This document shows positions 21,251-62,808 of a stretch of DNA of 64,000 nucleotides, piece after piece. The notes under the pieces are model-generated. The model was not told where the DNA came from. It worked only from the letters and a program-made list of their open reading frames with translations, and searched no databases. Source of the stretch: an uncultured Eubacteriales bacterium (lineage in GTDB: Bacteria > Bacillota > Sulfobacillia > Fermentithermobacillales > Fermentithermobacillaceae); assembly GCA_964406505.1 (NCBI GenBank), contig CAYORX010000004.1, forward strand, positions 17,056 through 81,055, given 5' to 3'. The translations under genes and the position numbers were made by a program. Within the stretch, counting starts at the first letter, position 1. The number at the start of each line of letters is the position of its first letter.

Positions 21251-21985
21251 TTAGGCTGAAACATCGGGCTTAGGCATGCTCGCCAAAATTTGCTTGGCAT
21301 CTAGCCTTTCTTCAACCATATCATCAGATAAAATTTTGCCGTCACGCAGCGTAACCACTCTTTCGGAATGCCTAGCAATATCGGGATCATGGGTCACTAA
21401 TACAATGGTTATTCCTTGTTCATGAAGTTTTTGAAAAATCAACATGATTTCTTCGCCTGAACGAGAATCAAGGTTACCGGTAGGTTCATCAGCTAAAATT
21501 AGTTTTGGGCCTCCTACTATAGCCCTCGCTACAGCTACCCTTTGCTGTTCACCACCTGATAATTCATTAGGCCTATGTCGAGTCCTTTTGGATAAACCCA
21601 CCATTTCTAACGCTTTTATTGATTTCTCCCGTCGCTTGGCTGCGTTCATCCCTCTGTATATCAAAGGTAGTTCTACATTCGATGTTGCATCGATCCGTGA
21701 TAACAGATTATAAGACTGAAAAATAAATCCTAGACTTCTATTTCGGATATCAGCCAATTGATTATCAGATTTTTTGCTGATATCGTCACCGTCAAAATAA
21801 TAATCGCCGGAAGTTGGACGATCAAGACATCCTAAAATATTCATTAAAGTCGACTTACCTGAACCGGATGGTCCCATTATCGCGACAAATTGTCCTTTGG
21901 GAATTTCAAGATCAATTTCTCTCAGTGCAGGAACTTTTACCTTACCCATCTTATATTGCTTAATTATTTTATTGATCTTTATCAT
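21251..21985 (-). CDS. ABC transporter ATP-binding protein, MacB/LolD/FtsE-like, with no adjacent permease
   Basis: Walker A GPSGSGKST, ABC signature LSGGEQQR, Walker B ILADEPTGNLD. Preferred start is MIKINK (21985) with a GGAG RBS. Confidence 0.88.
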   Translation of the reverse strand: MIKINKIIKQYKMGKVKVPALREIDLEIPKGQFVAIMGPSGSGKSTLMNILGCLDRPTSGDYYFDGDDISKKSDNQLADIRNRSLGFIFQSYNLLSRIDATSNVELPLIYRGMNAAKRREKSIKALEMVGLSKRTRHRPNELSGGEQQRVAVARAIVGGPKLILADEPTGNLDSRSGEEIMLIFQKLHEQGITIVLVTHDPDIARHSERVVTLRDGKILSDDMVEERLDAKQILASMPKPDVSA

Positions 21986-22183
21986 ATTACACACTCCACA
22001 TTCAAATTCGCTATAAATAAAACTGCACGACTTTTTATCACCCGACCTAACCGGAAAAGGATACATGATAGTTCACATTAAACTTTCAACTTACCTCACC
22101 GGAGGCCGGGCGTCTCATTTACGATCACTTCATTCATTGACGTAGCATATACCAAAGAGTTCCATCTTGTTTTGTTCTAGCAT

Positions 22184-24811
22184 CTATTGAACAATTCCCG
22201 AAGCTAACACGTCGACATTCTGTGATGTAATGTATGTATTTGTAATTCTAACCACTTTATTCTCCAACTCATAGGCAATAGTCAATCTAACCGCCCAAAA
22301 CACTGTAAATTCGCCTGAACGCTCCCAAATCACATAAAATTTGTCGCCTGGATCGCATTCAATATTCGTAACTTGCGCATCGTCAGGTAGATTCCAGGTT
22401 ACTTTACCCGAAAACAGCCCCTGTTTACCTACAACCCATTTCTTGGGGCCTGAAAGATCCAATTTCACTTCCGGAGGTATTACGCTTTTACACTCGAATT
22501 CATAAACCTCAGGTTCTTCACCATCTATTGTCACATCCCAATTCTTTTCAATCAACGGGTCACCGTGGTTATCTACTGATATTGCCCGAACAGAATACGT
22601 GCCTTTGGCTAAAAACTTGTGTGATACTTTCAAATGGGGCTGCCCTTGAATTATCAATGTCTCACCGTCTCCGAAATCAAGTTCCCAATATAAATGGTAG
22701 GTTTCATCGGGTTTCCACAAAGTTGTATGTTTTGATCTGTAAACCACCCTTACTTGTGGTATGTCTTCATCATCTATTCCGCCAAACCCCGGGGCAAATT
22801 CTTCATCATCTCCAATTTCCAGATCAGGTCCAGGTTCCCAGGGAATATCGCCCGTCCCTATACCGGGACCTTCATCTTGCCAACCTCCCGAGTTCCCGGA
22901 ACCCGGCGCGAGCGCTTCTACTCCGGCCCAAGCATCGCAATGTATCTCTTGTTCAAAAACAGATTCAACTTTGCCCCCCGGAGTATATGGATTTAAATTT
23001 CCCTGCCTGATTAACCGTAAACCGAGCCTGTAAGATTTAGTTTTTAACATGATATCTGTTTTAGAGCCACCTCGAATCACTTCGCTCATGCCCTGAATGG
23101 GGGTCCATCGAGTACCATCATACCCTTCAACCCAGATTGCACATCTCCAGCCTTCCGGTAGCGACGAAGTTCGAATAGAAATGTCAAAAACCTGATCAGG
23201 CGACACATCCCAAGGAACTGCAACATAAAGTGGATGCCAACTGGAAACTTGTAATTGTTCTGTTTGACGGTCTTTAATCAAAATCTCCTGATCTTTCATA
23301 GAATCTGATAAGAAGGATAATATGCTGTTGTAGACGCGTTCATCTTTTAAGATATTTAAATGTGAAGGCGATAAAAACCCCGAAAACACTCGAATTATAT
23401 CTCTGGGTCCCTGGGGTGAAATAGATGAATCAACTTCGCAAAAAAAGTTGTTAGGACCCACTTGTGGCCATACTACACTCAGCAAATTGGTTACCCGACC
23501 TGTAATATTTATGAAACGGGTTTTCCGGCAAGCAGCGGCTGAGTAGGAGTGGTCATTCATAGATTGAAGATAACAGTTAGCAGGTACCCTTTGGAATCGT
23601 TGACCAACAGATGTCCCCAGGTTGATCAGCACATCTTCTTTGGAAAGCCTCCTTAAGATAACATTTTCTACATTATCCAAATACCCGATCGAACCGATAA
23701 TGCTATCTGTAATGATTTTCTGCAATTCAGCTTTTACAGTCACCAGTGCTTTTTTAGTGAAATGAATAAGCGTTTTAAGACCATAATGAATGGCTGCATC
23801 TTTAATGTCTGTGGGTATATAATCAGATGCAAATAAACTTTGAGCTAGACTGCCCGCGGACGCTGTTCTGATCACGTATTGATTTTTGCCTACAGCCATG
23901 GCTAATATTTCGTAATACGCAGTTGAAAAATCTCGGCCTTTATCAGGTAAATTGTTAAAGTCAATCATAGGCACACAACCAAGGGGGGGATCCTTAGCAT
24001 GTTCGATACAATTTCGCCATAGTAGCGGCCGGTTTTGCTGTATCCATCCTGCAAAAGTTTGCTTAGGCGAATCTACCGGTACATAGGGTAACATCAAGAA
24101 TCGTTCTTGTACGTATTGGCTATACAATGGTTCATAAATTTCCCTAGCTCTTTTAGATACCCACCAAGTTTCGCTTTCCCAATCAAACTTATCGGTGCCG
24201 ATGAACAAAGGTAAATCGCCCGCACTATTTACAGATTGCACCTCTAAAACTCCACTTACTTCACCAAACGGAGAAAAACGCGCCGATCTCGTTTCTTTTT
24301 CAAACATATGTTCATGTTTTACAACGTTATATGCTTGAAACATGAAATCTGCCAGAAACGAACCTCTTTGAGGCGTACTGAGCATAATCGCATTGTCTAT
24401 CAAACCATCTTGAATAATGCCAAGCTCAATGCCAAATCTCAATACAAGCCCAGAAACTCCATATGTAATTACGTTTAGCAAAGTAGATTTTGTAGTAACA
24501 GCAACTTGCTGCAAATACTTATGTAATACATAGACTCCTGAATCAAGATCGTAATAGGGTTCATCGGGAGTGAACACAAACAAGTTCGTTTCAAGTTCAT
24601 ACCCTGAATTTTGAAGTCGAGAAATCAACCCGCTTTTACCCCACAAACTTAGTTTAACTTCATCAACGCCGCCTTTCACAGGTTCCGAAATTAACACCAA
24701 AGGGGCCCTAACCCCATGGCTTTGGGCAGTCTCCCCGAACGAAGGCACCCCAAAATTTAACAAAACACAAACACATACCACAATTCCGATGGTATCTTGC
24801 ACGCGGTTCAT
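22184..24811 (-). CDS. Large secreted protein with a C-terminal PKD domain and an N-terminal hydrolase-like region of unknown function
   Basis: Preferred start is MNRVQDT at 24811 with RBS AAGGAAAAGG, followed by a signal peptide (IVVCVCVLLNFGVPSFG). The track ORF starts at 24853. PKD motif WELDFGDGE...YSVRAISVDNHGDP, Gly/Asp/Pro-rich linkers, and a central region with no recognisable family. Confidence 0.6.
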   Translation of the reverse strand: MNRVQDTIGIVVCVCVLLNFGVPSFGETAQSHGVRAPLVLISEPVKGGVDEVKLSLWGKSGLISRLQNSGYELETNLFVFTPDEPYYDLDSGVYVLHKYLQQVAVTTKSTLLNVITYGVSGLVLRFGIELGIIQDGLIDNAIMLSTPQRGSFLADFMFQAYNVVKHEHMFEKETRSARFSPFGEVSGVLEVQSVNSAGDLPLFIGTDKFDWESETWWVSKRAREIYEPLYSQYVQERFLMLPYVPVDSPKQTFAGWIQQNRPLLWRNCIEHAKDPPLGCVPMIDFNNLPDKGRDFSTAYYEILAMAVGKNQYVIRTASAGSLAQSLFASDYIPTDIKDAAIHYGLKTLIHFTKKALVTVKAELQKIITDSIIGSIGYLDNVENVILRRLSKEDVLINLGTSVGQRFQRVPANCYLQSMNDHSYSAAACRKTRFINITGRVTNLLSVVWPQVGPNNFFCEVDSSISPQGPRDIIRVFSGFLSPSHLNILKDERVYNSILSFLSDSMKDQEILIKDRQTEQLQVSSWHPLYVAVPWDVSPDQVFDISIRTSSLPEGWRCAIWVEGYDGTRWTPIQGMSEVIRGGSKTDIMLKTKSYRLGLRLIRQGNLNPYTPGGKVESVFEQEIHCDAWAGVEALAPGSGNSGGWQDEGPGIGTGDIPWEPGPDLEIGDDEEFAPGFGGIDDEDIPQVRVVYRSKHTTLWKPDETYHLYWELDFGDGETLIIQGQPHLKVSHKFLAKGTYSVRAISVDNHGDPLIEKNWDVTIDGEEPEVYEFECKSVIPPEVKLDLSGPKKWVVGKQGLFSGKVTWNLPDDAQVTNIECDPGDKFYVIWERSGEFTVFWAVRLTIAYELENKVVRITNTYITSQNVDVLASGIVQ

Positions 24812-24849
24812 AACCTTTTCTTTAGGCAATACATGCCCAGGGCTCTTTG

Positions 24850-25527
24850 TCATTGATAAATCTCCGCCTTTACCCCCGATTTAGGCCACAACCCTCTATT
24901 TGCGATAGCTAAACGAGTTGCCGGATAATTTAAATCAAAACATCTTTGCAATTCTTCTTGCCATTTCTCAGCCGTAATTCGTCTCGGTCCGGTTGGTTCA
25001 AGCACCAACAGTTCTGCCCAAGATTCGCCTGGCGCAAGCTTAATCTTTTCAGAACCGTAGTTTATATGTACCGTTCCATCTCGCCTAGCTCTTTGGACGG
25101 TTAATTTTCCCCGAACAACCCTCGCCTGGTTGTTCACAAGTTCTATTATATTTCCATCAATATCAGGTGCGGTTGAAGACACCGGCGCAGGGAGATTTAA
25201 CGTTGTTCTGCCCATCCGCGAAAAGGTTAAAGATTCGTCAAACTCCACACCTTGGGACAAGGCGCTGTAATGAATCCCCAAACATACACCAAACAGGTTG
25301 ACCTTTTTAGGTACGAAAAGCATTTTTTCGTCAGCGTCGATGAAAATTTGCGAATTCTCAGGTGTGATAAGAGGCCAACCGGTAAGCGCGTTTAATGAAG
25401 ATTCTTGAATAGTTAAAAAAACGAACTGGTCAGATGACCAATTCAACCTTGACAACACGAAAACTAACATTATACATACGACAACAGATAAAACTACTTT
25501 AAGGATAAGGTTAATACGGTTTTTCAC
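24850..25527 (-). CDS. Hypothetical membrane-anchored protein, first gene of the operon with the PKD protein
   Basis: GTG start preceded by GGGGGAG. N-terminal TM helix and an extracytoplasmic domain. Stop overlaps the downstream track ORF. Confidence 0.5.
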   Translation of the reverse strand: MKNRINLILKVVLSVVVCIMLVFVLSRLNWSSDQFVFLTIQESSLNALTGWPLITPENSQIFIDADEKMLFVPKKVNLFGVCLGIHYSALSQGVEFDESLTFSRMGRTTLNLPAPVSSTAPDIDGNIIELVNNQARVVRGKLTVQRARRDGTVHINYGSEKIKLAPGESWAELLVLEPTGPRRITAEKWQEELQRCFDLNYPATRLAIANRGLWPKSGVKAEIYQ

Positions 25528-25707
25528 TCAAACTCCCCCACTAATACGATTTATTTTAAGTGAGGGCCTGTATGTACAAATGATAAATGCAACAACAAAG
25601 TTACGACATACATACAAACGGCCCGAGTCTAATAACACGCATTGCATCGTGCTTTAATACCACCGGGCCCTTCGCAATATACATTATATCACATTAAAAC
25701 CGTTTAA

Positions 25708-27267
25708 TTACAAATTTTTGCGGTATAAATGGAAAGATTTTTTGATAATCGGTTTAATATTTGCATACACTTTACCTTTTTCTGCATCTTGCTCGTCAAC
25801 CCACATTACCTCGGTAGTTTCACCCGGTTGCAATTTGGTTTCGCCATCGATTTGTTTCATAACATAATAATAGACGGTTTTTTCTACTGGAACATTGCGT
25901 TCATCAAGAAAATGATATACGGTTCGACCTGCTAAAGCGACTAACCTACATATTATCCCAGTTTCTTCTTTAACTTCTCTGATAGCTGCTTGTTCAATAT
26001 TTTCTCTTTGTTCTACATGCCCCTTTGGTAAAGTTATAAATCCGAACCTATCTCTTATCATAAGTATCTGCAATTTACCGCCATGATCTCGAATCACAGC
26101 CCCGCCAGCACACATCTGATAGCTATCTGGCCGCTTAAGCAGCATAACGCGCATCAAACCAGCAACTTGCCTAGCAGCAAACGGCAATGTAAATTGGGTG
26201 TTTTCAATGGTTTCTTCGACCGTACCTGGACCTAAAGTGCTGTCAAAAATAGAACAAAACTCTTCAGGGTGTTGGCCGACAACATCTTTTCCAACGCTAC
26301 CACCTAACACTATGGTAGGTACCCCGTGAGCACGTCCCACTACAGCTACAGCATGGGGTACTTTTCCTTTTTGGGTTTGGGAATCAACTTTACCTTCTCC
26401 GGTTATGATGAAATCGGCTTTTGCGATCTGTTTTGCACAACCGGTTTCCTCGATAATAAATTCCGCTCCAGAAACCACCGCCGCATTAAAAAACGCCCAA
26501 AGTGACGCCGCTAAACCTCCACCGGCACCTGCACCAGGTAGCGAACGCGGATCACGGCCTAGATTTTTCGATAATATAGCGCCGTATCGATCCATGTATT
26601 TATCAACTTGGGCGATTTTATCGGCAGGTATTCCTTTTTGAGGACCATAAGTGCTGGTAGCTCCTTCTTCACCGATCAAAACATTTTTTACGTCACAAAG
26701 GGCTACCACTTCAACATCGCTAAATTTTTTGGGAATGTCGTGAGGCTCGACGCTAACGACATTTTTCAGTCCTAAAATACCGAATTCAACCTGATTCCCT
26801 TTATCGTCAAGTATTTTGCCACCTGCGGCTTGAGCCATTCCTATACCACCATCATTTATTGCTGTACCGCCTACTCCGATAATTATACGTCGGGCACCTT
26901 GATTTACTGCCCAAACCATGAGTTCACCGACCCCGTAACTCGTGGCAGAAAACACATCGCGCTTGTGAGGCGATGTTAGCGCAAGTCCCGAACAATTCGC
27001 ACTTTCTATCACCGCATCACCGTTGGAAAGTATCCCAACCTTTGCAGTTATCATCTCACCGTAAGGTCCTACCACTTCGATATTCTGAACTTTACCACCT
27101 TTGGCTGCTATCAAAACATCAATGGTACCATCGCCACCGTCAGCAAGAGGTGTTTTCACAAGGTTGGCTTCTGGGAACCCTAGCTCAAATCCTTGTTTAA
27201 CCAATGAGCATGCTTCAGATGCAGTCAGGCAGCCTTTAAATGCGTTCATTGCAATTACCGCATCCAT
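25708..27267 (-). CDS. Glycerate kinase (GlxK family) fused to a C-terminal NUDIX hydrolase domain
   Basis: Residues ~1-375 match glycerate kinase (ADGGDGT, GAGAAGG motifs). Residues ~380-519 carry a perfect Nudix box GHVEQRENIEQAAIREVKEETGI. A single uninterrupted reading frame. Confidence 0.8.
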   Translation of the reverse strand: MDAVIAMNAFKGCLTASEACSLVKQGFELGFPEANLVKTPLADGGDGTIDVLIAAKGGKVQNIEVVGPYGEMITAKVGILSNGDAVIESANCSGLALTSPHKRDVFSATSYGVGELMVWAVNQGARRIIIGVGGTAINDGGIGMAQAAGGKILDDKGNQVEFGILGLKNVVSVEPHDIPKKFSDVEVVALCDVKNVLIGEEGATSTYGPQKGIPADKIAQVDKYMDRYGAILSKNLGRDPRSLPGAGAGGGLAASLWAFFNAAVVSGAEFIIEETGCAKQIAKADFIITGEGKVDSQTQKGKVPHAVAVVGRAHGVPTIVLGGSVGKDVVGQHPEEFCSIFDSTLGPGTVEETIENTQFTLPFAARQVAGLMRVMLLKRPDSYQMCAGGAVIRDHGGKLQILMIRDRFGFITLPKGHVEQRENIEQAAIREVKEETGIICRLVALAGRTVYHFLDERNVPVEKTVYYYVMKQIDGETKLQPGETTEVMWVDEQDAEKGKVYANIKPIIKKSFHLYRKNL

Positions 27268-27328
27268 TACTGCTGATCTCCTTTCGTAGTTTCACAAGCA
27301 TTAAATGTATCGATATCACGCTTAACAC

Positions 27329-28366
27329 TTATCCAACTACCGCTCTTAAGATGCGCATCCAGTTTCGTCCTAAAATCCCTGCGATTTGTTCTCCTGAAAT
27401 GCCTCTTTTTAGCAATTCAAAAGTAAGATAAGGCAGTTTACCTATGTGCGACACCGGTTCTGGCCCGGCCTCCCCGAAACTATCAAAATCAGTGCCTAGC
27501 CCGACACAATCCTCACCGGCCAATTCCATGGCATGGATGATATGTTCCGCAACTGTCGCAATATCGGCCTTTTCATCGGTTCCTGTCAAGTATTCATGGT
27601 TAAATGAGATTCCTACAAGACCACCCGCTTCACCGATAGCTTTTAGCTGAGCATCTGACAAATTTCTTGGGTGGGAAAGCAAACTGTAGCAATTCGAATG
27701 GCTGGCAACGAAAGGACTTTGCGCCAGATCTACCATGTCCCAAAATCCCGCTTCAGATAAATGCGCGACATCTACAATCACACCAAGCCTAGAAGCCTCG
27801 TTAACAACTTTTATACCAAAAGGAGTAAGCCCGCCTCGAGAAACTGAAACAGCGGCACCGTCGGCAAGCAAGTTGCGATCATTCCAAGTCAAAGTAAGCA
27901 TTCTCAATCCTAGTTTGTAATACATTCTAAATGTCTCGAGGCTTCCTTCTAGCATCGCCCCATCACCAAAACTGAGCATAACCCCCACTTCATCGGTATC
28001 GCGAACAGATTCAATATCGGAAATTTGCAACACACGCCTAATTCCGATTGCCTCGCTTAAATCGTTAAATACATCTATGTATTCTAAAGCCTGTTTAACT
28101 CCACGCATAGATGGCACCCTATCATAGGGAAACGCGCTAAGAAACACACAATCTACTTTGGATTGTCTTAACTTTGGCAAATCTGAATGCCCAAATGCAG
28201 ATTCCTCTTGAAAGTTCCGAACCCCATTGAGAACATCCCAAAGCGATCCCTGATGTCCATCGATAATTAAAGATTCAGAATGTAATTCTTCTGCTCGTTC
28301 CATTCGAATTTCTTCCATAGTTGGATCATCTTTCGGTTTCTTTTTTAAAACAGAAGCTATATCCAT
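27329..28366 (-). CDS. Membrane dipeptidase (peptidase family M19)
   Basis: 345-aa ORF with IIDGHQ, VDVAHLSE and GLGTDFD motifs of renal-dipeptidase-like enzymes. Confidence 0.85.
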   Translation of the reverse strand: MDIASVLKKKPKDDPTMEEIRMERAEELHSESLIIDGHQGSLWDVLNGVRNFQEESAFGHSDLPKLRQSKVDCVFLSAFPYDRVPSMRGVKQALEYIDVFNDLSEAIGIRRVLQISDIESVRDTDEVGVMLSFGDGAMLEGSLETFRMYYKLGLRMLTLTWNDRNLLADGAAVSVSRGGLTPFGIKVVNEASRLGVIVDVAHLSEAGFWDMVDLAQSPFVASHSNCYSLLSHPRNLSDAQLKAIGEAGGLVGISFNHEYLTGTDEKADIATVAEHIIHAMELAGEDCVGLGTDFDSFGEAGPEPVSHIGKLPYLTFELLKRGISGEQIAGILGRNWMRILRAVVG

Positions 28367-54671: not shown

Positions 54672-55325
54672 TTATCCATGCCGATCTTTATCCGGCACAT
54701 TATCCCAATCATAATCCTCTAAAAGCTTAGCAAAATCTTCAGCTTCTTGACCAAAATAATCTTCCATACTCTCTCTTGGCTCTCGAGATAACTGAGATTT
54801 GTTCTCTCGATAATCATCCGTGGTAAAACGCGCCATTTGCCTTTTACGGTTTTGTTCGGAAAGGCCTGCTTTTCTTGCTTGAACTCTAAGTTTACGTTGA
54901 ACTTCTTTAACCTGCTTTTTAAAACGAAAGTTCTCAAAACCGGGCTGAGCAAAACTTTTAGGACCCCTTTTAGATACGCTTATTATTTTGCCTATCCATT
55001 GCTTAAGTCCCGCTTCATACGAGATTTCAGAAGTTGGAATACGTAACACCGAATAACCGCAGTTTTCGAGTATTGACTGACGCCTTCGATCTTCCTTTTT
55101 GCGAGAAGATGTAAGGTGGCTCCACCCGTCAACTTCAATTACAAGCCAATCATCAATGAGAAAATCGACTTTAAATTGTTTTATCGGCACTTCTCTTTCA
55201 AAACAAACACCGGCCTTTCGCAAATTTTTGGCGATTTTAAGTTCACTCGGTGTATCCCGATGATAACCCCAAATTTCTCTTGAAGAATATTTTCTGCCTT
55301 TTTTATTTCCCAAGATTCTTGCCAT
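54672..55325 (-). CDS. DUF559 endonuclease-domain protein (PD-(D/E)xK, Vsr-like fold) with a long charged C-terminal tail
   Basis: N-terminal ~115 aa match DUF559 (FKVDFLIDDWLVIEVDGWSH...RRRQSILENCGYSVLRI). The C-terminal ~100 aa are a basic-then-acidic low-complexity region. Confidence 0.6.
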   Translation of the reverse strand: MARILGNKKGRKYSSREIWGYHRDTPSELKIAKNLRKAGVCFEREVPIKQFKVDFLIDDWLVIEVDGWSHLTSSRKKEDRRRQSILENCGYSVLRIPTSEISYEAGLKQWIGKIISVSKRGPKSFAQPGFENFRFKKQVKEVQRKLRVQARKAGLSEQNRKRQMARFTTDDYRENKSQLSREPRESMEDYFGQEAEDFAKLLEDYDWDNVPDKDRHG

Positions 55326-60855: not shown

Positions 60856-62808
60856 ATGGATCAAGTATACATCGTAATTTCAATCGTTCTCGCAGGGTTG
60901 GTCCTCCTTGGCATCAAGTGGATGAGTTCTCCTCGAACCGCTGTAGGCGGAAACAGACTAAGTGCTCTTAGCATGTTGATAGCCATTTTACTGGTTCTAT
61001 GGAAAAACCACATCTTAAGTGTGCCACAACTTTGGATAGCTATCGTAATAGGAGGCGGACTAGGCTATTTAATGGCAGTAAGAGCTACCATGATACAAAT
61101 GCCACAAATGGTAGCTTTGCTTAACGGACTGGGAGGCGGTGCTTCCGCATTGGTAGCTATCGCCGAAATCATGGACAAATACGATCATATGTTGACGTTT
61201 AATCAATTAAGCAGCCAGCTTGCTTTGATGGTTGGCGGCTTGACCCTCAGTGGCAGTTTAATAGCAGCAGCTAAACTTGATAGACGAATGACTCAAATGC
61301 CTGTCGTTTTGCCTAACCACAATTTGATCTCGAACTTCAGCATCACTGCAATGTTGATCTTAGGTGGTTGCACATTGGTATTTGATGCCGCAGTGATTCC
61401 ACTATCCGGTTTAGTTTTATTCATATCTCTAGGTTACGGCGTGTTGTTCGCCATTAGGGTCGGAGGCGCGGACATGCCTATCACAATATCTTTACTTAAT
61501 TCGTTTTCAGGCTTGGCGGGTTCGATCGTAGGGTTTACAATTTCGGAACCGTTATTGGTAGCTGTAGGGGCCATCGTTGGAGCATCTGGTCTTATTTTGA
61601 CCCAAATAATGTGCAAAGCGATGAACCGATCTTTAGCTAATGTTCTGAGCGGTGCTATAGCTCAACCATCGAAATCAAAAGTTAAAGACCCCAAAACTGA
61701 GGCCTTGCCTTCTGTTAAACACATAGAAAAAGAAGTTAGTGCCGAAGCTCGTGCAGCACAACTATTGAAAACTGCAAAACGAGTGATAATAGTACCGGGC
61801 TACGGCATGGCCATAGCTCAAGCGCAGGGACATGTGAAGAACTTAGCCGATGCATTAGAGTCTAAAGGCGCTAAAGTTAAGTTCGCCATACACCCGGTTG
61901 CCGGTAGAATGCCCGGACATATGAATGTGCTTTTAGCTGAAGTAGATGTGCCATATGACGATCTTTGTGAAATGGATGACATTAATCCTGAATTCCCTGA
62001 TACAGATCTCGCCATCATCGTAGGGGCTTGCGACGTGGTCAACCCTGCTGCTAACACGGCAGAAGGTACCCCGATTTACGGCATGCCGATACTTGATGTT
62101 GACAAAGCGAAAAACGTGATCGTATGCAACTTAGACACCAAACCGGGTTATTCGGGAGTAGACAACCCACTTTATGAAATGGAGCACGTTAAACTCCTTT
62201 TGGGCGATGCAAAACAATCGCTTGATAAACTTCTAAGCGAAGTACTAAAACCTGCGGATACAGATGAACTTCAGGTTTTAGAAGAAGCACCTGCTGAAGA
62301 AGAATCTTTAGGACAGATTTTAAGCGACGCATCTAAAGTGATAATAGTACCGGGCTACGGCATGGCCATAGCTCAAGCGCAGGGACATGTGAAGAACTTA
62401 GCCGATGCATTAGAGTCTAAAGGCGCTAAAGTTAAGTTCGCCATACACCCGGTTGCCGGTAGAATGCCCGGACATATGAATGTGCTTTTAGCTGAAGTAG
62501 ATGTGCCATATGACGATCTTTGTGAAATGGATGACATTAATCCTGAATTCCCTGATACAGATCTCGCCATCATCGTAGGGGCTTGCGACGTGGTCAACCC
62601 TGCTGCTAACACGGCAGAAGGTACCCCGATTTACGGCATGCCGATACTTGATGTTGACAAAGCGAAAAACGTGATCGTATGCAACTTAGACACCAAACCG
62701 GGTTATTCGGGAGTAGACAACCCACTTTATGAAATGGAGCACGTTAAACTCCTTTTGGGCGATGCAAAACAATCGCTTGATAAACTTCTAAGCGAAGTGC
62801 GATCGTAG
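60856..62808 (+). CDS. pntB: NAD(P) transhydrogenase beta subunit with a tandemly duplicated NADP(H)-binding domain III
   Basis: 650 aa. The dII membrane domain (~aa 1-300) is followed by a complete dIII (VIIVPGYGMAIAQAQG...LLSEV), a 31-aa acidic linker, and a second dIII identical to the first. Confidence 0.85.
   Translation: MDQVYIVISIVLAGLVLLGIKWMSSPRTAVGGNRLSALSMLIAILLVLWKNHILSVPQLWIAIVIGGGLGYLMAVRATMIQMPQMVALLNGLGGGASALVAIAEIMDKYDHMLTFNQLSSQLALMVGGLTLSGSLIAAAKLDRRMTQMPVVLPNHNLISNFSITAMLILGGCTLVFDAAVIPLSGLVLFISLGYGVLFAIRVGGADMPITISLLNSFSGLAGSIVGFTISEPLLVAVGAIVGASGLILTQIMCKAMNRSLANVLSGAIAQPSKSKVKDPKTEALPSVKHIEKEVSAEARAAQLLKTAKRVIIVPGYGMAIAQAQGHVKNLADALESKGAKVKFAIHPVAGRMPGHMNVLLAEVDVPYDDLCEMDDINPEFPDTDLAIIVGACDVVNPAANTAEGTPIYGMPILDVDKAKNVIVCNLDTKPGYSGVDNPLYEMEHVKLLLGDAKQSLDKLLSEVLKPADTDELQVLEEAPAEEESLGQILSDASKVIIVPGYGMAIAQAQGHVKNLADALESKGAKVKFAIHPVAGRMPGHMNVLLAEVDVPYDDLCEMDDINPEFPDTDLAIIVGACDVVNPAANTAEGTPIYGMPILDVDKAKNVIVCNLDTKPGYSGVDNPLYEMEHVKLLLGDAKQSLDKLLSEVRS
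61782..62244 (+). repeat. Direct repeat copy A (463 bp) encoding PntB domain III
   Basis: 100% identical by inspection to 62337..62799, offset 555 bp. The identical 79-aa antisense track ORFs 61818..62057 and 62373..62612 corroborate this. Confidence 0.9.
62337..62799 (+). repeat. Direct repeat copy B (463 bp) encoding the second PntB domain III
   Basis: Identical to 61782..62244 and separated from it by a unique 92-bp in-frame linker. Confidence 0.9.

Follow-up and report, generated by a model that had tools for sequence, protein, structure and literature searches.

The glycerate kinase-Nudix gene

The stretch of DNA analysed here, hereafter the window, comprises 64,000 nucleotides from an uncultured Eubacteriales bacterium (assembly GCA_964406505.1, contig CAYORX010000004.1, positions 17,056 to 81,055) and carries a gene in which a glycerate kinase of the GlxK family is joined in frame to a C-terminal Nudix hydrolase domain. 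The gene lies on the minus strand at 25708..27267, possesses an ATG start and a stop codon at 25708-25710, and specifies 519 amino acids without an internal stop. A Shine-Dalgarno-like AAAGGAG, read directly from the sequence, is located 10 nt upstream of the ATG (27278..27284, minus strand), and the homologs start at the same alignment position. Three parts are distinguished, all on the minus strand. Residues 1-377 (26137..27267) form a class-I (GlxK/GarK family) glycerate kinase domain, recognized through PF02595, TIGR00045, the structures 3cwc and 1to6, and its fold. The junction, residues 378-387 (KRPDSYQMCA; 26107..26136), was placed using the alignment, the spacing between R373 and G388 and the confidence of a structural model. 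Residues 388-519 (25711..26106) form a Nudix domain predicted, from PF00293, PDB sequence matches and Foldseek, to be of the diadenosine polyphosphate (ApnA) hydrolase type. Its Nudix box, GHVEQRENIEQAAIREVKEETGI, can be read directly from the sequence at residues 416-438 (25954..26022).

A preliminary description of this DNA had proposed a single 519 amino acid open reading frame (ORF) at 25708-27267, which the ORF listing bears out; the minus strand had been omitted. The domain limits given there, at about residues 1-375 and 380-519, are accurate by Pfam (4-372 and 389-508), and the two halves, searched with hidden Markov models, are each recognized in their own right (PF02595 and TIGR00045; PF00293), with scores well outside what chance would give.

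Recurrence of the fusion

A search of 5.8 billion proteins revealed the identical protein (P0001) in both NCBI and Logan, together with 50 further fusion clusters at the 90% identity level, 41-64% identical and 439-571 amino acids long, all with both Pfam domains. Below these, the matches drop abruptly to stand-alone kinases of about 380 amino acids with no more than 42% identity. Three extra fusion clusters (P0193, P0340 and P0343) raise the total to at least 54, with identities of 39-64%. The sources are independent, being metagenome-assembled genomes (MAGs) in NCBI as well as JGI, ENA and Logan assemblies, and one copy resides in the genome of Ca. Fermentithermobacillus carboniphilus Bu02 (CP062796), which is closed and measures 2.3 Mb. 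Across the junction the proteins align without gaps, from the last kinase helix (...FAAEQIGRLxRVFALSxP) through 4-5 residues to the first Nudix strand (SAGGVVxR).

That this particular assembly turned two adjacent genes into one, through a frameshift or the loss of a stop codon, has nothing to recommend it except the general rarity of the architecture. It is vanishingly improbable, and an artefact of frameshift or read-through is ruled out, because the same in-frame junction, with neither frameshift nor stop, recurs in at least 54 clusters from independent NCBI, JGI, ENA and Logan assemblies and in the closed genome. The sole apparent split, P0121 (174 amino acids), comes from a contig of 1.15x coverage (L008, ENA ERZ2647912; 2650-4216). 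Its ORF starts inside the last kinase helix and the neighbouring kinase ORF is cut at 322 amino acids; it is a frameshifted fusion in which the break lies within the kinase and not at the junction. A low-coverage assembly artefact of this kind is able to mimic a split glxK/nudix gene pair. The gene in the window thus encodes a genuine fusion, and both of its domains are members of the families to which they were assigned.

The kinase half

The assignment of residues 1 to about 375 to the GlxK family was confirmed by two profiles. Gly_kinase (PF02595) matches residues 4-372 over profile positions 2-371/372 (E-value=1.2e-115; 386.8 bits against a cut-off of 23.3), and the NCBIfam model TIGR00045, "glycerate kinase", reaches 352 bits, the cut-off being 168.45. 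The kinase half can be aligned over its whole length with Salmonella "glycerate kinase 2" (3CWC; E-value=1.5e-78, 36% identity) and also with the Neisseria protein 1TO6. The fold agrees, an AlphaFold2 (AF2) model matching 3cwc with an E-value of 8e-44 and a template modelling (TM) score of 0.82, and 1to6 with a TM score of 0.87. The motifs PLADGGxGT, GGxAxNDGG, DVxNxLxGxxGAxxxxGPQKG and ITGEGxxDxQTxxGK are present, and 38 of 46 near-universal positions (those at least 95% conserved among 129 stand-alone members) are kept. The fusion therefore shares with the class-I GlxK/GarK kinases both a full-domain match and the fold, but those enzymes are normally stand-alone proteins of about 380 amino acids whereas the fusion has about 140 extra residues at its C-terminus.

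A further difference from GlxK/GarK is clade-specific and lies within the signature motifs: the fusion kinases of the bacterial class DTU015 carry the substitutions S135T, T137M/I, A249G, D8N and E46D. These alter the motifs GGSATNDGG to GGTA(M/I)NDGG, GAAGG to GAGGG, PDSFK to MNAFK and ADGGEGT to ADGGDGT. About 10% of the stand-alone members have D8N and E46D too, but S135T, T137M and A249G are limited to 2% or fewer. The divergent fusion P0193 has the canonical residue at every one of the positions substituted in DTU015. Judged from its sequence, the kinase half is most probably active and still acts on glycerate.

The Nudix half and its predicted substrate

NUDIX (PF00293) covers residues 389-508 (E-value=3.7e-20; 72.7 bits against a cut-off of 21.1). 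The perfect Nudix box that had been noted, G-x5-E-x7-REVxEExGI, is there exactly, from G416 to I438: G416-HVEQR-E422-NIEQAAI-R430-E-V-K-E-E-T-G-I438, that is Gx5Ex7REVxEExGI, fits the consensus GX5EX7REUXEEXGU, and the box is canonical in 51/51 aligned fusion proteins. The nearest solved sequences are the Ap6A hydrolase Ndx1 of Thermus thermophilus (1vc8; E-value=3.5e-13) and the Ap4A hydrolase of Aquifex (3i7u; E-value=4e-11), with further PDB matches to 4ilq and 1kt9 (Chlamydia CT771 and the Caenorhabditis elegans Ap4A hydrolase), the E-values ranging from 3.5e-13 to 8e-7. Foldseek likewise placed Aquifex 3i7u (TM 0.94, root mean square deviation 1.1 Å over 136 columns) and 1vc8 (TM 0.88) among the top matches, along with CT771 (4mpo), MutT1/Rv2985 "Nudix diadenosine polyphosphatase" (9cxx), the C. 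elegans enzyme (1ktg) and human Ap4A hydrolase.

In the alignment, residues K36, H38, E52, E55, E56, K83, E103 and Y121 of the C. elegans enzyme correspond to K415, H417, E431, E434, E435, K463, E483 and Y501, all of which are invariant in the 51-sequence alignment. Mutagenesis and structural work on the C. elegans Ap4A hydrolase has reportedly defined these eight as functional sites, with phosphate-binding Lys and His residues (K36, H38, K83), a catalytic Glu that lies apart from the box (E103) and a Tyr that stacks on adenine (Y121). The second stacking Tyr of that enzyme (Y76) falls in a gapped loop with Y451 and F453 nearby, and its equivalent is uncertain. Ndx1, Aq_158 (3I7U), CT771, the C. 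elegans enzyme, NUDT2 and the fusion have in common the PKGH..GE surroundings of the Nudix box, a KTVxYY strand, the downstream catalytic Glu and a C-terminal Tyr. The ApnA hydrolases are, however, free-standing proteins of about 125-155 amino acids whereas the Nudix domain of the fusion is covalently and, as modelled, rigidly joined to a kinase, and identity amounts to only 25-29% over the fold alignments.

ADP-ribose, ADP-glycerate and NADH-derived species had been put forward as possible substrates; the closest relatives being ApnA hydrolases, and the motifs of the ADP-ribose, NADH and CoA enzymes being absent, this suggestion is not supported. A proline 15-16 residues past the Nudix box is said to mark ADP-ribose pyrophosphatases; the fusion has F453 and L454 there, its first proline being P460. 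NADH pyrophosphatases (NudC) are marked by an SQPWPFPxS array past the box, which is absent from the post-box sequence ICRLVALAGRTVYHFLDERNVPVEK, and the NCBIfam NAD(+) diphosphatase model scores 16 bits against a cut-off of 158. The NuCoA motif of CoA pyrophosphatases is absent from the Nudix sequence of the fusion. NrtR, a non-catalytic Nudix-like regulator, gave only a weak fold match (TM 0.68, 16% identity), and a degenerate, non-catalytic domain of the NrtR kind does not fit the intact and invariant box.

By sequence and fold, then, the Nudix half belongs to the ApnA-hydrolase type, and it is predicted to be a catalytically competent diadenosine/nucleoside polyphosphate (Ap4A-Ap6A) pyrophosphohydrolase whose chain-length preference is not readable from the sequence. 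Nudix Ap4A hydrolases cut asymmetrically to AMP and ATP, and Gram-positive bacteria normally rely on the HD-domain protein YqeK for Ap4A (reviewed in PMC7705103).

Two other groups of two-domain Nudix proteins resemble the fusion in part. MutT1/Rv2985, which is the top Nudix match in NCBIfam and was found by Foldseek as 5ggc, 6m72 and 9cxx, combines a closely related ApnA/8-oxo-GTP-type Nudix domain with a second phosphoryl-transfer domain. Its Nudix domain has been reported to dephosphorylate NDK-Pi (PMC11784022) and sensor kinases (PMC12407098). MutT1 demonstrates that a Nudix domain of this type functions as part of a two-domain enzyme and is able to target a kinase. It differs in that the Nudix domain is N-terminal, the partner is a histidine phosphatase rather than a kinase, and the hosts are Actinomycetota; moreover its two domains act in sequence on one nucleotide, for which no counterpart is evident in the fusion. 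The NadM-Nudix proteins (2QJO, 2QJT, 2R5W) resemble the fusion in having an ATP-using metabolic enzyme and a C-terminal Nudix domain in one polypeptide, and are a weaker match by both fold and NCBIfam. Their partner, in contrast, is an NMN adenylyltransferase, and their Nudix domain is an ADP-ribose pyrophosphatase for NAD turnover, from another subfamily.

The junction

The AF2 model was built from the 51-sequence alignment and has a mean predicted local distance difference test score (pLDDT) of 93.1 and a predicted TM score of 0.84, with no segment below 50. A continuous helix (residues 350-377) runs into a strand (382-395), the pLDDT being 93-96 over residues 361-390. The spacing from R373 to G388 is 14 residues in 41/51 homologs. 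As modelled, the junction is rigid and lacks a flexible linker.

Position 363 is occupied by Phe or Trp in 51/52 fusions, P0193 included, and in 0/129 stand-alone kinases, which have Asp, Arg, Asn, Ala, Glu or Lys there. Phe or Trp is likewise present at position 182 in 48/52 fusions and not in the stand-alone members examined. From these residues it appears that the Nudix domain probably docks on a fusion-specific aromatic/hydrophobic patch (F363, F182), the two domains forming one rigid body. The linkerless rigid junction of the model and the shared aromatics suggest that the domains are structurally co-adapted. In pairwise comparison of the fusions the kinase halves are on average 58% identical and the Nudix halves 48%, with no catalytic residue lost; the fusion architecture is under long-term conservation.

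Distribution and origin

When 1.84 billion representatives of 50% identity clusters were searched exhaustively with phmmer, 5,170 clusters of the glycerate kinase family were found at an E-value of at most 1e-30; only 3 of them are full-length fusions, namely P0019, P0049 and the divergent P0193. The named carriers are "Bacillota/Firmicutes bacterium" MAGs and Ca. Fermentithermobacillus or other Fermentithermobacillaceae, and all fusions belong to class DTU015 (Bacillota_E; Ca. Fermentithermobacillus and relatives) plus one deeper lineage, that of P0193. A scan of GTDB species genomes with the pattern PKGHxEPGE, also frequent in other phyla, added a single fusion locus (L012) among the matches listed. 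Strain Bu02 has been placed in the uncultivated class DTU015 of Firmicutes_E, whose members are described as peptide- and amino-acid-fermenting thermophilic anaerobes inhabiting digesters and hot springs (PMC10215811); glycerate is not mentioned in that genome paper.

A neighbour-joining tree, without support values, was constructed from the kinase domains of 52 fusions and the 129 nearest stand-alone kinases. All 52 fusion kinases fall into one clade, with the 129 stand-alone kinases outside it. The kinase half of P0193 shows 47-58% identity to ordinary GlxKs against 39% to the DTU015 fusions. Its Nudix half, in contrast, finds other fusion Nudix halves as its first matches, and the fusion-specific aromatic at position 363 is present. 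The genes downstream of it are homologous to those of the window, the 889 amino acid protein over 850 residues (23% identity, E-value=1e-41) and the ABC ATPase with 55% identity. A shared origin is favoured because of these homologous downstream genes, the Nudix-first matches and the shared aromatics, and the most economical reading of the sequences would be a single ancient fusion followed by quicker evolution of the kinase in DTU015. A pre-fusion state with adjacent glxK and nudix genes was not found; a homology search with the Nudix half returned only stand-alone proteins, with identities of 39% or lower.

Fusions of GlxK to other domains are also rare. Partners are Maf, GNAT, VOC/glyoxalase, TPR, Clp_N and HTH (P0213, P0308, P0327, P0206/P0277, P0210 and P0271). 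GlxK-GNAT is present on 3 contigs. GlxK-Maf (P0213; Maf being a nucleotide pyrophosphatase) is a singleton on a 5-kb contig and GlxK-VOC is likewise a singleton on a short contig; both may be artefacts. A general theme of "GlxK plus nucleotide pyrophosphatase", to which P0213 might have pointed, was set aside on account of its singleton status and short contig.

The preliminary description knew of no described GlxK-Nudix fusion. The architecture is indeed rare, and the searchable literature yielded no paper that describes it: PMC12623156 mentions glycerate kinase and Nudix separately and not as a fusion, and a review of the Nudix clan never mentions glycerate. The protein has, however, been deposited many times in databases, where the copies bear the sole annotation "glycerate kinase". 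It is a new variant, not described before, that is put together from two enzyme families already known, and not a new kind of system.

Genomic neighbourhood

Genes in DTU015 are arranged in the order TPK, polysaccharide deacetylase, YbaB, M19 dipeptidase, fusion, a protein of about 225 amino acids, a PKD protein of about 890 amino acids, a MacB/LolD-type ABC ATPase and Lgt, and the window conforms to this. The M19 dipeptidase gene (27329..28366, minus strand; PF01244, E-value=9e-91) precedes the fusion on the same strand, with a gap of 61 nt in the window and 3-23 nt in relatives. Because these gaps are as short as 3-61 nt the two genes are probably co-transcribed, M19 being the first gene of the operon. 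Co-transcription, which had been suggested before, is thus plausible, but the adjacency is lineage-specific. M19 adjoins the fusion at L002, L004, L006, L008 and L012, and is not upstream at L009-L011, which represent the P0193 lineage, so the link is a feature of DTU015 only. In the P0193 lineage other, divergent genes (MoxR, DUF58, transglutaminase) are found upstream while the downstream genes are kept. M19 dipeptidase was considered as a functional partner and downgraded, the adjacency being missing in the P0193 lineage and no metabolic logic having been found.

Directly downstream of the fusion is a gene for a 225 amino acid protein with an N-terminal membrane anchor (24850-25527, minus strand). 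Its stop is overlapped by 4 nt by the start of the gene specifying the 889 amino acid PKD-containing protein (22184-24853, minus strand), after which comes the MacB/LolD-type ABC ATPase (21251-22066). No neighbours other than these are conserved across both fusion clades (also L009 9635-12708 and L002 9710-13140). The 225 and 889 amino acid proteins have no sequence relative in NCBIfam or the PDB, and Pfam recognizes only PKD.

The 180-nt spacer past the stop codon of the fusion contains a long hairpin (25614..25675, minus strand; RNA fold z = -2.69). It is GC-clamped, GGGCCCGG...CUCGGGCC, and is followed by UUUGUAUGUAUGU. It was not called by the terminator scan, and an Rfam search of the flanking spacers, the hairpin included, gave no match. 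The hairpin could correspond to the terminus of the operon, though the evidence for this is weak.

Two local insertions were observed among the relatives. A gene for a MobA-like nucleotidyltransferase (PF12804, NTP_transf_3) lies between M19 and the fusion at L002 (7241-7942) and L003 (2844-3380); this occurs only in Ca. Fermentithermobacillus and is absent from the window, L004 and L006. At L006 (9598-10566; GCA_050260675) a NotI-family restriction endonuclease (PF12183) and an unannotated 304 amino acid gene separate the fusion from its usual downstream neighbours.

The rest of the window is housekeeping in character (LeuRS, DnaK/GrpE, PolA, CoaE, AspRS, HisRS, RelA, RecJ and glutamate dehydrogenase). 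No gene for an enzyme that produces glycerate was found near the fusion in the window.

Proposed function and alternatives

The explanation that we favour, though by little more than an even judgement, is that the gene specifies a bifunctional cytoplasmic enzyme of single origin, a glycerate kinase and an ApnA-type Nudix hydrolase held together rigidly and inherited vertically in DTU015 and one deeper relative. The kinase half would most likely convert D-glycerate and ATP to phosphoglycerate and ADP, feeding lower glycolysis. The Nudix half would convert ApnA (or p4A, or Np4-capped RNA) to ATP and AMP or ADP. Were the two coupled at the level of nucleotides, as we propose, the docked Nudix half would remove ApnA locally and return ATP beside the ATP-dependent kinase. 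Acting as bisubstrate analogues, ApnN compounds are known inhibitors of certain nucleoside kinases (reviewed in PMC7705103). The coupling taken by itself is speculative and, in our estimate, rather doubtful. Less likely still is that the Nudix domain serves as a built-in alarmone handle, rigidly docked on the last kinase helix, binding and cleaving Ap4A-type stress nucleotides and so gating or protecting glycerate phosphorylation. If that were true, the entry of glycerate into lower glycolysis would be coupled to the dinucleoside-polyphosphate state of the cell, and the fusion would represent the first case of a metabolic kinase regulated by a covalently attached ApnA hydrolase, a "Rosetta stone" leading to a direct target of ApnA in metabolism.

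Several observations weigh against the bifunctional, coupled enzyme. The kinase half missed both the glycerate 2-kinase equivalog (274 bits against 686) and the glycerate 3-kinase (263 against 625) in NCBIfam, and the signature substitutions of the DTU015 kinases could mean that the substrate has shifted. ApnA is normally micromolar, an amount that makes "ATP supply" implausible in quantitative terms as the chief benefit. All genomes with the fusion are related to one another. Among the GTDB matches listed, the 79 nearest Nudix loci from other phyla all lack a GlxK gene within 6 kb, and the single nearest stand-alone GlxK whose surroundings were readable, located after a GH65 phosphorylase, has no Nudix neighbour. 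Since no independent genomic link between GlxK and an ApnA-type Nudix was found, the fusion is the only evidence of coupling.

The main rival to coupling is a frozen accident in which two independently useful housekeeping enzymes, a glycerate kinase and the house-cleaning ApnA/nucleotide Nudix of the lineage, were fused once through loss of a stop codon and each half continues to work independently; the state would persist because re-splitting would need both a new start site and a promoter. We grade this as a serious possibility, while not holding it to be the probable one. The fusion is restricted to a single set of related genomes whose synteny is broadly conserved, and it therefore counts as one evolutionary event, the two genes show no association at the loci listed or at the one stand-alone GlxK, and GlxK is sporadically fused to the unrelated GNAT, VOC, TPR, Maf, Clp_N and HTH domains, all of which an accident would accommodate. 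It accounts less readily for a junction that has no linker, is conserved in length and is modelled as rigid at high confidence, for the fusion-specific aromatics on the last kinase helix common to both fusion clades, or for the fact that both halves are intact down to 39% identity.

The same rigid docking would suit allosteric communication, and the Nudix half might instead regulate the kinase, either as a nucleotide sensor that gates it or as a phosphatase acting on the phosphorylated kinase. MutT1/Rv2985, whose Nudix domain is among the closest relatives by NCBIfam and Foldseek and has the reported activity on NDK-Pi and sensor kinases mentioned above (PMC11784022; PMC12407098), offers a precedent. 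Against regulation stands the invariance of every catalytic and substrate-binding residue of the Ap4A hydrolases, which suggests that hydrolysis of a small molecule is retained. To our knowledge, moreover, kinases of the GlxK family are not known to use a phospho-enzyme intermediate. We consider regulation of this kind improbable.

More improbable again is an idea that enlarges on the preliminary description, namely that the Nudix half cuts a nucleoside diphosphate-linked compound tied to the kinase (ADP-ribose, ADP- or GDP-glycerate, or an NADH-derived species), the two activities belonging to one pathway and the kinase perhaps having a shifted substrate. Cleavage of an NDP-glycerate would give phosphoglycerate, the product of the kinase, and both the substituted signatures of the DTU015 kinases (GGTA[M/I]NDGG, GAGGG, MNAFK) and the NTP_transf_3 gene between M19 and the fusion in Ca. 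Fermentithermobacillus would fit such a pathway. That nucleotidyltransferase gene is, however, absent from the window and from most relatives, and in P0193 a Nudix domain of this type is joined to a kinase that is entirely canonical. The Nudix half itself is closest to the ApnA hydrolases and not to ADP-ribose or NADH pyrophosphatases, with no proline 15-16 residues past the box (F453, L454) and neither an SQPWPFPxS nor a NuCoA motif.

Both halves come from well-known families, and no new chemistry is implied. The combination is nevertheless rare, ancient in its lineage, structurally integrated and unstudied. What Ap4A-type nucleotides act on physiologically in bacteria is still a matter of debate, and the conserved link between an ApnA-type hydrolase and a metabolic kinase gives a hypothesis that could be tested cheaply: the effect of ApnA on the glycerate kinase, and its relief by the fused hydrolase. 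If the halves prove to be uncoupled, the gene would document a lineage-specific fusion maintained without functional coupling. For annotation, the name "glycerate kinase" hides a second predicted activity in DTU015, a class known metabolically only from genomes.

Other features of the window

Two further genes are unrelated to the fusion. A small gene for a DUF559/REase_MTES_1575 endonuclease-like protein (54672-55325, minus strand) lies between recJ and a gene of the S9 prolyl-oligopeptidase family, in surroundings that are otherwise of the housekeeping secDF-recJ-apt-relA-dtd-hisS-aspS type. The PntB transhydrogenase ORF (60856-62808, plus strand) specifies 650 amino acids; the PNTB match (profile length 456) consists of two stretches and stops at residue 461, pointing to an additional fused segment that could be the membrane portion of PntA.

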